From contig OX597822.1 in the NCBI GenBank assembly GCA_951406725.2, positions 108,872,001-108,936,000 of the forward strand: DNA of 64,000 nucleotides. Reading direction: 5' to 3'. Made by a program: the position numbers and the translations under genes. A model generated the notes under the pieces. That model was not told the DNA's origin and searched no databases. It saw nothing but the letters and a program-made list of their open reading frames with translations. This document shows positions 13,690-54,610 of the stretch, piece by piece. Origin of the DNA: Octopus vulgaris (taxonomy: Eukaryota). Every line of letters starts with the position of its first letter. Position 1 is the stretch's first letter.

Positions 13690-14303
13690 ATATACTCGAC
13701 AAATGCAGTATATATGCATATATGCGTACAGGACGTCACCAACTGTGTAAACCTCATGAAATACGAAAATAAATTAGTTAAATATGCAAACAACGAGAGA
13801 AAAATGGAAAACAGGACAAAGCAACACACAGAAACGAACCTTCATCAGTTGTCGGTTGCCTATCTACTCCTCATTTCGAGCATTCAATGACAATATGAGT
13901 CTTCAAAGACAGCTGCTCCCATAAATTTTGATATAAAGTTTAAGGTTCATAGAGGGTCAATTTTGGGAATAAAAAGAGGACAAAAGAAACATGGAGGGTC
14001 GTTAGACCAGAACGAGGAAATAGTGAATGATGGCAGAAATATATTCTTTGAAAAAAGAAAAGATAGAAAAGAGAGAGAGGAAAACGCACAGCCCTTTGAA
14101 AGTCCCTGCAAGAAGAAAAGATGGTCACATGAGGAAAAGAAAGATGGACGATGGTCATGTGTGAGGAACGAGAGAGAGAAAACGAAAATGCGGGCGAAAG
14201 AGAGTGAGATAGAAAATGGTGAAAGAGGGAGGAGGAGAGTAAGGTTATTAGAGAAGGAGGAAGAAACCATTAAATAATAATATAAATAACATATATATAC
14301 ACG

Positions 14304-14336
<33 letters not shown>

Positions 14337-14385
14337 GCATATGTGGGTACAGAACGTAACGAACTGTGCAAACAACATGTATGTG
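13690..14385 (-). mobile_element. Interspersed repeat, same family as 43226-44250; probable Penelope-like pseudo-LTR unit
   Basis: Minus strand GCTCGAAATGAGGAGTAGATAGGCAACCGACAACTGATGAAGG matches 43250-43292. Purine/pyrimidine-biased spacer and a partial direct repeat (13726-13755 vs 14347-14377). Confidence 0.5.
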
Positions 14386-14504
14386 TGTGTATATATATAC
14401 ATATATATGTATATATATATGTATATATATATGTATATATATGTATATATATGTATATATATGTATATATATGTATTTTCTTTTTCTCTCCTTCTTTCTG
14501 TGTT

Positions 14505-28073: not shown

Positions 28074-29660
28074 ACATTACACCTGCATTATATTATATCC
28101 GAAAAGCTGGTTCACCAGTCATTAGATTATGGCTGCCATAATACAAGAGGAGCTTTCTTTGCATATTCAAAGCGTTTCCCGTAAACACATTTAAAAGATA
28201 TCTATATATATATATATATATATATATAACTATATACATTCACACACACACACACACGTATACTTATGAAATTACTTCTGCATATGTGTACGTCTGTGTA
28301 TTCGTTTTCTCTTTCTGATAGGCTATTTAGTCCTTTGTTTTATTAATTTAGACATAATTACCCTCTTCACCTTGCCAATTTTCTCTACTTTTCTTTCCCA
28401 CCTTCTTTCCATTATTTATCTCCTTTCATAATGGAACTTTCTAAACAAAATCAAATCAAATTTTCTCTTTTATTCATTACCTCTTTGTATTCGTTTGCTA
28501 AATTCTGTTTCATTCTTGCACTCACTCAGTTTTTATTTATTTATTTCCATTTAAAATCCATTTAGAAGTGTCCCTTCCCTATTACTGTTATGCAGTTTAT
28601 ACATCAATACTTTTTCTTAAAAACTCACACCTACTCTTTCCCGCCTCCCCTCTCACCTGTCAGTCCTTAATTATCCATCACAATGTGACTTGCATTTATG
28701 CTTAGTTTACTTCAGTTACAGATTGAAACCAAGAAAAGTGTTACTTTAATCTGTACCTCTCATCTAACATCTGTAAGGCACAATACAAAGCCGTACATCA
28801 CCGCTGTGAAAACCAGTAGAATGAAATGTTTTTCATTACTTTTATGAGTACTGCCATTGGTTGTAATGGCGAACCAACTCTATCATATGGAAGAATAGAT
28901 AGCTGTGACTTCTGAATTCAAATTCTTTTCTCCGCCATCGTTCTATGCCATTTGCTTTCAACAGTCAAACGTAAACAATACCAATAAAAAGTTGTTTATA
29001 TAATCATGATATTACGTATACTTCGCAAAAAAACAATAAATGGCTACATGCGACGCAAATGCTGAATATTGCCATGCCTAGCGCAGAAGCTTCTATCTTT
29101 GTTCCCTTAGATGCGTTTTATTGTTACTGTTGTTGTGATGCGGTGGCGGTGGTGGTGGTTTAGCTACATTTTAACACTATTATCAATCCACCTTTTAATG
29201 TATTATGATAACGCTATAATTTCAACGCTTACATTATCCAAAATAGATATTTTTAACATAATAAGGTACGTTATTTTACAGATATTTGTATCAGAGAAAC
29301 ATGTAGACATCTTCTAGCCACAAATGAAACAGCGACATGGACTACGTTTGAACATGACAATTAACACTCTCCACTTTCGTGGTTATTGATGCTGTCATCA
29401 TATTTTGTGTTTTCACTGGTTCTGGATATTAACGATTAACAGAAATATGCTTCGTGCTACTCGCACTGTATTTCGGAGTGATTTACGTCGGTAAAGACGC
29501 AATAATTTCGTCCTTCCTATGTCACAATATCCACACATCTAGGTTGGATTGTGCGCTGAATAATTCCCTCCTGGAGAGGGAGAAATGTTTTCTAGGGATT
29601 GATATGAATTGCACGGAACATAATGATTTGAGTGAGCGCAACTCTATTAAAAAAAACACT

Positions 29661-42410: not shown

Positions 42411-43225
42411 CCCCACCCATACATACACACACACTCACACACTAGGCCAACTTTGCCTTTCGTCATATCAAGATCGATAAAATAATTACCAGTTGAGTAC
42501 AGGCCACGATGTAAGCAACCTATCCACTCTCCAAAATACTGTCCTTGTGTCAAAATTAAGCGAACACGTGCTTAATGAATGTGGGGCAAATCTAAATTTT
42601 TAGTACCGCGAAGGTGTGGATTTCTAGAGCAATGTCCATAAATATTCTTTTTTCGCATTGATTTTCAAAGACTTCGTCATAGTCGCTGAGGAGAAAATAT
42701 CAATATCAGTGCAAATTTTGTCCTTTCACACAACTCATACTTCTTATAATTACGGTTGTGGGTTGATGTTAGTGTGGCCGGATGTAATCCACCAATCGTT
42801 CTAGTATTCAAACATTCAAATATTTGCATTTACTAGGCATCTGATATTTCTCTGCATCTTTCAAATGACAGATAGCATTGAGTAATTTATATATGTATGT
42901 GTATATGTATATATGTGTGTATGTATGTGTGAGTGTATGTATGCAGGTATTCCTAAACCTATTTTGTATGTACGATTCATATATGTGTGTAAATATATAT
43001 ATATATGTATCTATGAATGAGATAAGGGAGGGAGTTTGCATTCCTGGGTACTTACACCCATACTCACACAGGGGGGCGCACGCATAAACACATACACGTG
43101 CACACATACGCACACACTCCACAAACATGCACGCAATTACGCACACAATATATTTTTATGAATTCCAGGGCGTATCTCTGTATTTTATACGATATACGTC
43201 TTTACATTCTTTAATATATTCCATA

Positions 43226-44250
43226 GAAGGTACATTTTGTCGTGTATTACTCGAAATGTGGAGTAGATAAACAGCCGACAACTGATGAAGGGTCGTTCTT
43301 TATGTTACTTGTCTTGCTTTCCATTTGTTTTCCTCGTCGCTCACATAAAAATGCTTGTCTTCATATTTGATGTTTTTCGTATTTCGGATTTCATATTTTC
43401 GTATTTCCTGTTGTTTACGTTTTGTGAATCCTGTGCCCATATATGCATATATATACACATTTATATGTCAGTATGTAGATGTATGTATATATGCCGATAT
43501 TTTATTTATATTAATATATGACTGAACGTTACGCATCCATTTCGAAGTAAGTTTATCTTAATAATTTTGATGCGACCCTCTTCGGTACAGTTTCTTCTCT
43601 CTCACTCGCCCTTTTCGTTTCCTCTCTTTTCCTTTCACTAATTCTTTGTTTCTCCCTCGACTTTCGCTTTTTACCCATCTCATCCTTTCGTTACTTTCTC
43701 TAATTCCTTTTTACTCAACTTTGCCGTTTTCTATATGTCCTGCTCTCTCTCCCTCTCTCTCACCCTCTTCCTCCTTTACTCTCTTGTTGCTCACACGTAA
43801 CCATCGTCCAGTTTTCTTTTCTTTCGTTCTGTTGCCCAGACCAGATGCATTCTTGTCTGCCTTCTCTCCTATCATTTTTCGTGTCAAAGAATGTTTCTCA
43901 ACGTTCGCCACCTTACCTCGTCTGGCTTAGCAGCCCTCACTATTTGGTTCACTGTTCTGTTTTTGTTACCAACTTTCACCCTCCGCATATCGCAAATTTT
44001 ATTTTTGTCTGCAGGAGCAACTCTTTTCTCGAAGGCGCATATTGTCGTGAATTGCTCGAAATGTGGAGTAGATAATCAGCCAGCGACTGATGCAGAGTCA
44101 TTCTTTATGCTACTTTCTTGTTTTCTATTTGTTTCTCATATCGTTCGCATAAAAAGACATTTGTATTCGTATTTCGTGTTGTTTTTCGTATTTCGGATTT
44201 CCTGTTGTTTACGTTTTGTAAAGCCCTTTACACACATATTCATATATATA
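43226..44250 (+). mobile_element. Element with direct repeats of about 225 bp (43226-43455, 44031-44250) around a CT-rich spacer; probable Penelope-like pseudo-LTR tandem
   Basis: Both repeats contain TTGTCGTG...CTCGAAATGTGGAGTAGATAA...ACTGATG and TTTTTCGTATTTCGGATTTC; same family as 13690-14385(-). Confidence 0.55.
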
Positions 44251-44329
44251 TAGATGGGGTTTTTACTGCCCCAATTCCTGATGGAGTTTTTTTCTGTAGA
44301 GAAAAAGGCTACATCCCTTTTAATAGTAG

Positions 44330-44377
<48 letters not shown>

Positions 44378-44686
44378 GGTCCCGGGTTAACCACAGTAAA
44401 TAAGGTACTCAATACTCTCTCTCTCTCTTTCTCTCTCTCTATATATATATATGCACATACATATATGTATGTATATATGCCTATATATATTTCAGCCCCG
44501 TTTACCGAATCCAACCTCAAAAAGACATGAAAATTATAGTTTCGAAATCATGTGACTTTTATGCATGGTGAAAAGAGAATAATCTTTATAGACAATATGC
44601 CTATGAAGACATGTACATGAATGTGAGTGATCATAGCTAGTAAGAGAGAGAGAGAGAGAGAGTTTGCATTATGATCATTATTATTA

Positions 44687-50666: not shown

Positions 50667-51533
50667 CTTAAACCTTTCGCAAGCATTATTAATCATCGTG
50701 GTATATGTTACAAAATCGTCGGACTCATTTTTCTTTAAATTTAAAGACTCCCACCGAATGTTAAATAGCGAAATTATTTCGCTAAAAATATTAGTCAAAA
50801 TATCTATTGTTTCATTAAAACAATTCCGTGGGCTTTCTCGGCAAAATAAAGTTACAAAATCTTTCGTGTTCCGGAGAGGCAAGCTTTCGCAAAAGTAGCT
50901 TTATCTTCCTTTCACTAGACCATCCCTTGCATTCCTCTCTGAATGTCTTCGTATCGTCTGTAATACGCAATAAAGGTGTTTCCTTCATCCGGTTTGTAGT
51001 GAAATTCTTCGATGGAATTTGCTACACCGCATGCTGAAAACTTTTCTGTCCTATTTCTCGAATTCAGTAACAATTCTGTTAACTCCTGTATTTGTTGCTG
51101 TTGAGCGAACGGTCTTCTCCCCAGAGCTCGCAAGATGGGAGAAGTCATAAATGTAGTCGTTTGCTATTTGTAAGACCCGTAGAAGAGAAAACAGGTCAAC
51201 CCCTGACATCGAGAGCATCGACGGATGGATAAATGCACATCCAGGCTCAGCATTTGCGTAAGAAGTCGGGGACAAGAAACAAGAAGAAATGATGAGAGAA
51301 AGTTGGGGCGTAAGAGTACAACAGGGGTCGCCACTACCCCCTACTGGAGCCTCGTGGAGCTTTAGGTGTTTCGCTCAATAAACACACGCAACGCCCGGCC
51401 TGGGAATCGAAACCGCGAGTCCGCTGCCCTAACCACTGGGCCATTGCGCCTCCACACTCTGTGCTGCTCTTGTTGCTTTACAACTGTTTTCAGTAACACT
51501 TCCATTTCGGTACTATTCAAAACCTCGTCGCCA
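50667..51533 (-). mobile_element. Ty3/Gypsy LTR retrotransposon: PBS and gag relic, interrupted by a SINE
   Basis: PBS TGGCGACGAGG (51533-51523) right after the LTR end ...TGACA. ATG at 51505; IEEFHYKPDEGNTFIAYYRRYEDI, SLFNIRWESLNLKKNESDDFVTY...INNACERFK. Confidence 0.8.
51105..51454 (-). mobile_element. SINE family B head with a fourth type of 3' body, inserted in gag
   Basis: Head matches family B; body 51105-51275 has no match to the other copies. Confidence 0.75.
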
Positions 51534-52191
51534 CTGTCATATCGCAAGTTCAGACGCAGTACCTTCACCGATGACGTGCCTTCGCTCCACTACCGACTAT
51601 TCAACTAGTGAACTCTTAACTTCCGAACTCTCGACCTCCGAACCTCGTATCTTTTTTATTCATCACTTACGCCGTAACAGAGAGGGGTCATCACAAGGAC
51701 ATACAGAACACCATAGTGGCAAATAAACATGAAAGGAATAAAAAATGGAAAAATGTACAATGAAATAGATGGTGATGAAATGGTTGCATGCCCCCCACTC
51801 ACATGTAGTATCATTTGAACCTTCTTACTTTCAATTTGTAGTATTTTTCTTTTTTCCTTATTTTTTCACTATCCACACCATTTTTTTACGCCTTTTGCTT
51901 CATTTTTTTAAACCATTTTACTTTGACTTTTTTAAATATCAGATGTAAGGATCTAGTTCCTGTAGTTCTACCATTGGTGGCAGTTAATCGAACTCCACCA
52001 CGAACCCCGGCTGCTCAACATTACACTTTTCCTTCAAGTTTATATGGATTTTTCTTTATCGATTAGGATAGCTTTGGTGTGTTCACCGTACATCAAGCAA
52101 TAAGGGTTAAGGCAACTCAACCTTATCAGTCTTTCGCTACATATGCTTTTAGCATATGTCACGAAATTCCAGCTATATTTTGTTCGTTTTG

Positions 52192-52672
52192 TAATAATGA
52201 AATTTTTGCATACAGTGCTCAGGTGCACCACAACTTGTCAGAAAGTGCATATAAAGTACATGCAGTAATGTAGAAATGTCTGGAAAGTGAACATGCTTGT
52301 GTGTGTATGGAGGGGAGAAAATCAAGTGTAGTGTTGGCGAATCTCAGGAAGCATGGAAGTCTTGAAGGATGCAGTGCTCCGACAACTAACAACCGATGCC
52401 GGCAGTTTGTTCCATGCTTCAGCAACTCTCAGCGTGAAGAAATGTTTCCTGAAGTCATGGGAGCTGTGCTGTTTTCTTACTTTGTAAATATGTCCACGGA
52501 CGTCAGATGGGTGGAGTTTGAAGAGGTGCTCAGAGTTATTGTTTGTGCGATGGTTGATAATTGTATGGGTGTCTGCCAAGTCAGCTGCCAGACGTCGGAG
52601 TTTCAATGTGTCCATGCCCAGGGGAGTAAGGCGTTCAGGATATGGCAAATGCCTGATGGAGGGTATTCTTTT
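52192..52672 (-). mobile_element. CR1-group LINE 3' fragment nested in the ORF1-only element
   Basis: KRIPSIRHLPYPERL..LKLRRLAADL..RGHIYKVRKQ..RKHFFTLRVAEAWNKLP..FK, then 3' UTR ending CATTATTA. Confidence 0.85.
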
Positions 52673-53138
52673 GGAGGGTTTTCTTGCTTGTTTGTCATGT
52701 TCCACTCTTGGCGCCACGTCCTCCATTCTGGTTAGTGTCGCCGTTTCTTCTCTTTGCTGTCCAAATGTGTTCTCTATTATGCTTGCTTCTATCTCCTCCC
52801 CCTCTTCTTCTCAACCTCCTTTTCTACCTCTTTCTAGACCTTTTTTCAAAAACCTTTCTTTTCAACCACTTTTACGACTTCCTTCTCCACCTCTTTTTCT
52901 GCTTTTTACTTTTTCTGTTTCTCCGGTGGATAGCCCAGTCTTTCTTCCCTTTTTCCCCACCTCAAATTCCTTCTCTATTCCTGTTGTCTCCTTCTCATCT
53001 TCCTGGACCACATCATTCATTTTCTCTTGTTCTTCAGCCTGTCCCATTTGTTGCTCTTTCTTTTCTCTCTTGGGGCACCTCGCCTTTATGTGGACTTTCT
53101 GACCACACAAATAACATAGGAGGCTGCAGTAACCAGCC

Positions 53139-53601
53139 AGAGTCCAGAAGCTGGCTACCCGCATGGTTCATGGTCTCAAAAATCTGTCCTATGAAGAAAG
53201 GCTGGGGACGCTCGACCTTTATTCTCTTGAAAAACGCCGCCGCCGTGGTGATCTCATTCTCGCCCACAACATCATAAGCGGAAAGTGTAACCTCTCGAAA
53301 GAGCTGTTCTTCACTCCTGCTCCAGAGCGTCGGCTGCGGGGTCATTCCGAAAAGCTCTACCTGCGACGATTTCATCTCAATCGAAGGAGAGGAGCTTTCT
53401 CCGTCCGGGTTGCGGATCCGTGAAACAAGCTGCCAGACGAGATGGTAAAGATGCCGACGACCGCTTTGTTCAAAGCCTCCCTGGACCTCAAGTGGCCTGA
53501 ACTCTTTACATGAACACCACCCTGTACTTAACTCCATGTCCCCCTACATGGCCTTGCTATTTGCTTTTGAGCCAAATTAACTAACTAACTAACTAACTAA
53601 C
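53139..53601 (+). mobile_element. CR1-group LINE 3' fragment with (TAAC)n tail, nested in the ORF1-only element
   Basis: RVQKLATRMVHGLKNLSYEERL..LYSLEKRRRRGDLI..LRGHSEKL..FSVRVADP*NKLP. Confidence 0.9.
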
Positions 53602-54610
53602 ATATTTCATCCAACTCTCGTTGTACTCTGACAACTTGCTTGCTACAGTATGTTTGTAGGAGTACCCATTCGTCTGTCTTTATGGCATCAGTGGAGTGCT
53701 TTATCGCTTCTTTGTTTGTGAATCGCAACTTCACTGTGCCAAACCTTCCTCCTCTTGTTATAAACGTGATGACCTTTTTATCTTCCTTTAAACACTTCTC
53801 AATGTCATCCATCGTAGCTATTTCTATTTACCTTGTCGATACCTTCAGTGTTTTGTATATCACTGTCTTTTTCTAAACTCGATTTGTTAAGTCAACTGGA
53901 GGCCTTCAGTTAAGTTTGTGGCCTTCCTTTTCCAATAGCTTTCCGGTTTCTTTCAGCTTTCTTGGCTCAATTCTAACTTCCCGAACTTACAAAGTTTCTT
54001 CTTCTGTTCCTATACCAGTTGTAGCCGCATAATTGTGGCTATTTGCTGGTCCAGTTTACATTTCACTTTTTCTCTCCGGCTCTCCCATAACTAGGAAGAA
54101 AAAACACAATTCGACAAAAACTCGTTATTAAAACAATTTCAACAAGTAACAAATGTGGTACACCTACGAGGGGAGATCTTTAACAATTATAACAATATCA
54201 CACTTACATCAACGGAATCGTAAAGATATCAAAAAAACACAGCCCCCCCCTCTAAATGTTCGTTGACCCACCAACCTCCGAACCTCGTGTCTTACTGGCT
54301 ATCACGTCCACTATTTATACGTAATCGACTAGCCTACTTTTCGTCTGGGGGTATCTACACAACAAAAGGAACAATAATGATTTCTGCTAAATGTACAAGC
54401 TAGACATTTTGGGGAATTACATCAACCCCAGTATTTCACGGGTACCTGATTTATCGACTCCGAAATGATGAAAGACAACGTTGACCGCGGTAGTAATTTT
54501 AACTCCTAACATAACCGGACGAAATGCTACCAAACATTTTGCCTGGAGTGCTATCGATTCTGCCAACTCTTAACTACTACTACTACTACTACTACTACTA
54601 ATACTACTAC

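Follow-up and report, generated by a model that had tools for sequence, protein, structure and literature searches.

A decayed retroposon with a Type I ORF1 in Octopus vulgaris, a candidate member of an ORF1-only LINE family

Derivatives of long interspersed elements (LINEs) that carry only the first open reading frame (ORF1) are natural tests of the role of the ORF1 protein (ORF1p) in cis: selection on ORF1 in an element that borrows its ORF2 implies that the ORF1p it uses is made from its own RNA. A 2,620-nt insert in the genome of Octopus vulgaris raises the question of whether a family of this kind has arisen in a cephalopod, or whether the insert is what remains of an ordinary LINE. The insert lies in a 64,000-nt stretch of contig OX597822.1 (assembly GCA_951406725.2, forward-strand positions 108,872,001 to 108,936,000), here called the window, in whose coordinates all positions are given. 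An earlier sequence-only reading of the window proposed a non-autonomous, HAL1-like ORF1-only family moved in trans. That proposal has gained several related copies, a probably coding source and a Type I ORF1; the lack of ORF2 is a finding on this one copy. For comparison, contigs of four sequencing runs (X1-X4, under three species labels, X1 possibly being the window's own sample) were aligned to 51460-54460 at 80% identity or more.

The insertion and its host LTR

The insert is bounded by a target-site duplication (TSD) whose 5' copy lies at 54274-54293 and whose 3' copy lies at 51634-51653. The copies are identical at 19 of 20 positions, without extension beyond 20, and the span between them is the 2,620 nt noted above. 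No further look-alike within four mismatches of either copy occurs on either strand of the 64-kb window. Pairs of 20-mers with at most one mismatch and a spacing of 1-8 kb, low-complexity pairs excluded, fall on 16 diagonals in the window; 13 of these are multi-start runs (dispersed repeats) and three are single 20-mers, the TSD among them. A chance direct repeat as the source of the TSD is ruled out by its uniqueness in the window and by this diagonal count. On the minus strand, AATAAAA (51660-51654) sits directly against the repeat, so that hardly any poly(A) follows the signal. The repeat, its span and the adjoining AATAAAA end had all been claimed by the sequence-only reading and were recovered here. 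Both hallmarks of target-primed reverse transcription in the HAL1-like class (the TSD and the A-rich 3' end) are present, with a very short tail. An origin as an LTR-type element or DNA transposon is ruled out by the A-rich end and by the lack of terminal repeats inside the insert. Self-BLAST of the window reveals no other close copy of the insert. Together with the coding evidence below, these features support the identification of the insert as a non-LTR retroposon that has a TSD and an ORF1 of Type I (RRM+CCHC) but lacks reverse transcriptase (RT) and an intact endonuclease (EN).

The host of the insertion is a putative Gypsy-type LTR on the minus strand (51535-54361), which the insert splits into 51535-51653 and 54294-54359/54361. 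The earlier identification of this host is backed by its TG...CA ends, by an adjoining PBS-like 11-mer (TGGCGACGAGG, 51523-51533) and by a gag-like DUF7083 match at 50915-51163 (E 1.1e-4). No second LTR of the host occurs in the 64-kb window. Junction-crossing contigs carry the orthologous insertion at both ends in X1 and X3, at the right end in X2 and at the left end in X4, and only the locus's own contig is found at 51619-51644 in X1, X3 and X4. We infer the empty site of the insertion; no empty-site joint appears among the 15 of 111 contig joints listed.

Anatomy of the insert and the nature of its ORF1

Read along the minus strand, the insert opens with a 185-nt 5' UTR (54089-54273), which precedes an ATG at 54088 and is covered by paralogous contigs. 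The N-terminal part of ORF1 follows (53602-54088), with the first RRM-like domain and five in-frame stops, and is supported by protein relatives and by the predicted fold of one of them, P0041. A nested CR1-like LINE 3' fragment in plus orientation with a (TAAC)n tail (53139-53601) separates it from the middle of ORF1 (52675-53138, minus), which contains a deletion junction where the second RRM is missing, a CX2CX4HX4C knuckle (53116-53075) and a frameshifted K/E-rich tail. Beyond a second nested CR1-like LINE 3' fragment (52192-52674, minus) with an (ATT)n tail lies the C-terminal part of ORF1 (51920-52191, minus), which has a frameshift near 52046, a private stop at 51986 and an end at either 51941 or 51920. 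A weak AP-endonuclease-start-like motif, possibly a remnant of ORF2, occupies 51861-51917 (minus). The final segment (51654-51860, minus) ends in the AATAAAA and is covered by paralogous contigs; the RNA fold of 51654-51925 is not unusual relative to shuffles (z=0.76). The order of 5' UTR, ORF and 3' UTR described earlier is upheld as anatomy, but ORF1 continues past the second CR1-like fragment to about 51941/51920, which leaves a 3' region of only ~270 nt.

Both nested fragments are labeled CR1 from C-terminal motifs that we take to be those of CR1; Pfam has no match for either. Their summed depth in the contigs of X1-X4 is ~10^6, versus ~55 for one contig, and pile-ups of loose contig ends at 52192, 52674 and 53139 support their boundaries. 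For the second fragment, a joint of one paralog from 52688 to 52181 (intervening letters not given) runs across it in three of the four runs. Excision of exactly 52192-52674 leaves the ORF1 frame open over 62/62 codons, and this alone of the four boundaries tested does so, which places the fragment at 52192-52674. The two fragments reported by the sequence-only reading are thereby retained, but with the second ending at 52674 rather than 52672. The first is missing from a 599-nt contig of X3 that is 97% identical to the window and joins 53611 directly to 53139. In this contig the ORF1 deletion is still present, and depth arithmetic indicates that the stop at 53830 is too; in all likelihood the contig represents the ortholog from before the landing of the first CR1-like fragment.

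The knuckle pattern CX2CX4HX4C occurs once in the six frames of the 64-kb window, starting at 53116 on the minus strand, in agreement with the decayed knuckle-bearing ORF and K/E-rich tail described earlier. With the stop-free piece 53600-53827 as query, phmmer returns 37 proteins at E<=1e-3. Alignment covers the ORF1 core in 36 of these, the exception being an ankyrin protein (P0039) matched by chance. Nine of ten relatives looked up bear the label Octopus bimaculoides or O. vulgaris. For P0041, which comes from O. sinensis, an AlphaFold2 model (34-row alignment; mean pLDDT 68.8, and 77-95 over residues 101-280) contains two beta-alpha-beta-beta-alpha-beta domains plus the knuckle. Its top Foldseek matches are tandem-RRM proteins (E ~1e-5, with low whole-chain TM), and VIA-align returns RRM/ferredoxin-like folds at a middling level (Z 7-8.8). 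Named families among the atlas neighbors are for the most part ZCCHC3-RBD/zf-CCHC (0.87-0.92; zf-CCHC clusters 0.92, ZCCHC3 RBD clusters 0.89, the latter a lead only) and DUF4283 (TM 0.53); one PRE_C2HC-containing cluster (0.88) also occurs. On the modeled fold, ORF1 is a member of an Octopus family that combines two predicted RRM-like domains with a CCHC knuckle (i.e., Type I, L1/Tx1-like). Pfam gives no match to Transposase_22 (Type II ORF1) in the insert copy or its relatives, and none between ORF1 and Pfam ORF1 families apart from a weak knuckle match.

The window copy has itself been shortened. From a WLV-like motif to the knuckle it measures 7.7 codons, versus 68 residues in all three full relatives, so the second RRM has been lost and the frame changed. 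These private deletions, which the sequence-only reading overlooked, indicate that the copy decays by deletion. The C-terminal part does not significantly match the corresponding ends of relatives and has no usable atlas match. Scanned JGI metagenome contigs gave 208 pattern matches and no confirmed ORF1 relative, and a weak ORF1-profile match elsewhere in the window (near 29,300-29,570) was dropped after inspection.

Paralogous copies and the region after ORF1

The sequence-only reading had named an absence of other copies as a result that would tell against it. Other copies are present: paralogous contigs 82-90% identical to the insert occur in all four runs and cover the 5' UTR, ORF1, knuckle, C-terminal part and 3' region. 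The numbers of contigs that have a difference from the window in common (X1/X2/X3/X4) are 11/2/7/10 at 53830, 14/8/9/19 at 53655, 8/5/8/10 at 53038, 8/7/7/9 at 51986 and 3/7/6/6 at 51821. Paralogous contigs have sense codons in place of the stops at 53830 and 51986 (2/2 stops among the 40 of 663 rows listed), and paralogs lack 2 nt at 52046, so that the frame runs on to the stop at 51941 or 51920. Paralogs also have a 3-nt insertion at 53708, where protein relatives carry an extra residue, and several other differences shift window residues toward the protein-family consensus. Since the stops are sense-coding in paralogs and the differences lean toward the consensus, the source probably coded for ORF1 and the window copy decayed later. 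Deletion appears to be a common form of that decay, given the private deletions in the window copy and skips of 88-626 nt in the paralog alignments.

Normalized per contig, depth across the unique parts is 2-22. The ratio of depth in the 3' region to that in 5' ORF1 is 0.86, 2.34, 1.20 and 1.11 in X1-X4, and the summed depth is no copy number. An autonomous LINE of 5-6 kb normally leaves a large 3' excess. The lack of one here therefore favors a short element, given this usual behavior of long LINEs. PMC2861651 describes Hebe, an autonomous LINE without 5' truncation.

Pfam detects no RT or EN family in the six frames of the insert at E<=0.1. In this respect the earlier claim of no endonuclease or RT is borne out, but it missed the weak EN-start-like motif after ORF1. 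Neither the 12 phmmer relatives scanned nor P0041 contains an EN or RT domain, which is weak evidence because gene models seldom fuse ORF1 and ORF2. A word-index search for longer, ORF1-ORF2-fused proteins found none; it is insensitive and missed P0006, a known relative of 1,041 aa.

In the frame of the ORF1 end, ~19 codons from 51917 resemble what we take to be the start of a LINE endonuclease, a resemblance that is inconclusive. The comparison set consists of 117 loci fetched by an NVNG...QETH pattern, of which 92 are in frame and open and 42 additionally have a downstream GDxN motif; Exo_endo_phos matched in 6/6 of those checked. In the 32 loci with the commonest spacing, K is found at +7 in 28, R at +8 in 28 and W at +14 in 12. 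The segment at 51861-51917 is the best among 4,260 window chunks (E 0.12-0.22), with a PSSM score of 11.4 versus at least 18.3 for true ENs. For three alleles, its score is reached by 3, 49 and 15 per 2,000 shuffles; without the selection columns N and G, at least 218 of 2,000 shuffles reach it, which is not significant. The R codon of the motif is private to the window allele, other contigs reading K at 51892, and the in-frame stop at 51902 persists in contigs of X1 and X3 among the 40 of 663 rows listed. The motif lies ~710 nt past the knuckle, and the corresponding distance is 686-908 nt in five of the seven EN loci with an upstream knuckle (25 examined). QETH and later EN motifs are absent from the region after ORF1. 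The motif matches no Pfam family, only designed coiled coils in the PDB and nothing in plasmids, and has no usable literature. The Octopus ORF1 profile has no true match in the 117 loci, only chance matches to K/E-rich sequence. The motif is either a chance resemblance or what is left of an endonuclease start that has decayed much more than ORF1. In the latter case it would demonstrate an origin by internal deletion, but not that the copies have this deletion in common. Compared with true EN starts, the sequence after ORF1 has decayed far more than ORF1 has compared with its kin, a difference that would be anticipated for a stretch no longer coding in the source; the heavy decay of the motif fits better with such a source.

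Origin of the insert and comparison with known systems

We lean, by a modest degree, toward the view that the insert is an ancient, degraded member of a HAL1-like ORF1-only non-autonomous LINE family of low copy number. The TSD, the full 5' end, the tail and the lack of RT and EN speak for such a family. It would derive from an L1/Tx1-type element that lost nearly all of ORF2 by an ancient internal deletion. The source copy was presumably transcribed from its own 5' UTR, and its Type I ORF1 protein (two RRM-like domains, CCHC knuckle and charged tail) may, by analogy with its class, have packaged its own RNA. EN and RT would have been borrowed from an autonomous L1/Tx1 element, whose enzyme would have nicked the Gypsy-type LTR at T/AAGA and begun reverse transcription at the AATAAA(A) end of the RNA, with the 20-bp TSD as the outcome. 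Decay after insertion would then have brought stops, frameshifts and the two CR1-like insertions, one of them missing from the probable ortholog in X3, and removed the second RRM. PMC13282606 reports 80 L1-Tx1 families spanning 56 Mb in O. vulgaris; recent activity is seen in 13, which account for 421 insertions of ~5.4 kb each in 2.29 Mb. This abundance makes helpers plausible, and it also raises the prior of an ordinary origin.

The most serious competitor, to which we give appreciably less credence, is that a full-length autonomous Tx1/L1 element inserted in cis with the 20-bp TSD and that this copy alone lost ORF2 in a deletion of ~3.5-4 kb, with a junction near 51830-51850; the loss would either postdate insertion or stem from a template switch as the element integrated. 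Such a one-off loss would suit the private deletions within ORF1, the EN-start-like motif at the expected distance from the knuckle and the abundance of L1-Tx1 elements (56 Mb, 80 families). Paralog alignments, in the rows listed, apparently end at the ORF1 deletion points (from_end fits 53623 and 53119). Paralog cover also breaks near 51840-51960: it amounts to 2-3 contig-equivalents at 51864-51964 but 16-22 at 51763-51863, roughly the place expected of a deletion junction, and no paralog contig links ORF1 to the terminal 150 nt among the 32 of 94,920 pieces listed. Yet similar dips in cover occur within ORF1, and one paralogous contig (depth 63.8 in X1, 6.4 in X3) is apparently colinear, on from_end values, from ~51848 across the end of ORF1. 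Against a one-off deletion also stand the 3' to 5' depth ratio near 1 in three of the four runs, an EN-like score below that of every true EN with an R codon private to the window allele, and the stop at 51902 that X1 and X3 contigs retain among the rows listed above. Both ends of a random deletion would, moreover, have to fall inside windows of ~100-200 nt. If the deletion was nevertheless a one-off, the insert is ordinary transposon debris.

Two further origins are each given little weight. A single insertion of a 3'-truncated transcript of an autonomous LINE, prematurely polyadenylated at a cryptic AATAAA ~270 nt past ORF1, agrees with a tail of AATAAA plus one to three A and with the EN-like motif; it is very unlikely, since those 270 nt should be the first 90 EN codons, yet QETH and the later EN motifs are absent and the T-rich end looks UTR-like by eye. 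Equally improbable is a parent or helper from a non-L1/Tx1 clade that has an RRM+CCHC ORF1 and makes TSDs (e.g., the I/Nimb group). No RT is present in the insert to place its clade, and the PRE_C2HC-containing atlas cluster (0.88) would be in keeping with this origin, but an L1-type EN would suit both the 20-bp TSD at T/AAGA and the A-rich end, and the named atlas neighbors are mainly ZCCHC3-RBD/zf-CCHC (0.87-0.92), with DUF4283 (TM 0.53). In addition, passages of PMC5203782 tie the RRM/zf-CCHC ORF1s of non-mammalian animals to Tx1.

An ORF1-only family in Octopus, if confirmed, would extend the rule of self-encoded ORF1p to another ORF1 class (Type I, RRM+CCHC) and another phylum, and would account for a set of Octopus gene models labeled "uncharacterised", which would be transposon ORF1s that escaped masking. 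The stronger proposal, that half-LINEs arose independently and as a long-lived radiation in a mollusc, their parent being a Tx1-type element whose ORF1 is Type I, is doubtful. The literature covered, including passages of a survey of mollusc transposable elements (PMC10294476), describes no ORF1-only Tx1 family and no ORF1-only family in cephalopods; the octopus family may already be catalogued in a repeat library (Repbase, Dfam or curated Octopus).

Among the nearest known systems is HAL1, described in passages of PMC5753468 and PMC3627910 as a non-autonomous L1 derivative that encodes only ORF1p, has arisen several times, uses ORF2 in trans and has retained ORF1 coding capacity over long periods. 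The octopus insert likewise has a single LINE ORF1 homologue and no EN or RT. However, the ORF1 of HAL1 is Type II (coiled coil, single RRM and CTD; Transposase_22), whereas that of the octopus insert is Type I (tandem RRM and a single CCHC), so the insert is not HAL1 in the strict sense. HAL1 is, moreover, found in mammals and derives from mammalian L1, while the octopus insert is from a cephalopod, has a low copy number and is known to lack ORF2 at one copy. Passages of PMC5786205 group HAL1 (L1) with HeT-A (Jockey, Drosophila) and Ag-Sponge (CR1, Anopheles) as bipartite non-autonomous LINEs in which ORF1 is present, the latter two made by internal deletion. HeT-A and Ag-Sponge resemble the octopus insert as ORF1-bearing non-autonomous elements but come from other parent clades, and HeT-A is targeted to telomeres, whereas the octopus insert is interstitial with a TSD. 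Tx1 and diverse L1 elements with a Type I ORF1 share with it the RRM+CCHC ORF1, the TSD and the A-rich 3' end; unlike them, it has no ORF2 and no RT by which its clade could be placed. The ORF1-only strategy is thus a known one, and what would be new in the octopus is the host group and the type of ORF1.

Nesting of the host locus

The gag region of the putative Gypsy-type host is broken by a SINE-like repeat (51300-51455), of which there are four further copies within the window at 80-89% identity, so that the locus is nested at three levels: the Gypsy-type host contains the ORF1 element, a decayed LINE-like insert on the minus strand, which in turn contains two CR1-like fragments (52192-52674 and 53139-53601). 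Short, imperfect CCGAAC-like tandem motifs occur in the host LTR (51605-51653) immediately to the left of the TSD that brackets the ORF1 element. Because these motifs adjoin the TSD, its left edge lies within locally repetitive sequence.

Variation among the sequencing runs

The haplotypes at 51884-51902 are discordant with the species labels of the runs. Run X2, labeled as the same species as X1, has variants in common with X4, which carries another label, and X3, labeled as yet another species, largely agrees with the window sequence. On the left side of the element, X4 record 24 (51523-51770) spans the left junction and differs from the window at 17 of 245 letters; among the matches listed, other X4 contigs over the ORF1 element differ by 1-3%. 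Record 24 could come from a haplotype that has diverged, or from another copy of the host that shares the junction. X4 record 25 (51742-52174) continues for 328 letters past 52174 that are unaligned among the matches listed, and this overhang possibly reflects a different insertion at 52174 or the absence of the second CR1-like fragment.

Related sequences in the window and in Octopus gene models

Another member of the ORF1 family, frameshifted and only distantly related, lies on the minus strand at 67-445 (tblastn E as low as 1e-9 against relatives; profile E 2e-8). This copy crosses the left edge of the window, and its 3' side is therefore unreadable within it. Elsewhere, the K/E/R-rich repeat stretches at 13700-14400 (plus strand) and 43200-44450 (minus strand) are mutually related, with similar reading frames.

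Four Octopus gene models among the protein relatives are built on the element's ORF1 family: P0004 combines two copies of ORF1, the tail of P0023 is duplicated, P0006 fuses a WD40 protein with ORF1 pieces, and P0033 is annotated as "EPM2A-interacting 1-like". All four are probably annotation artefacts of unmasked elements.
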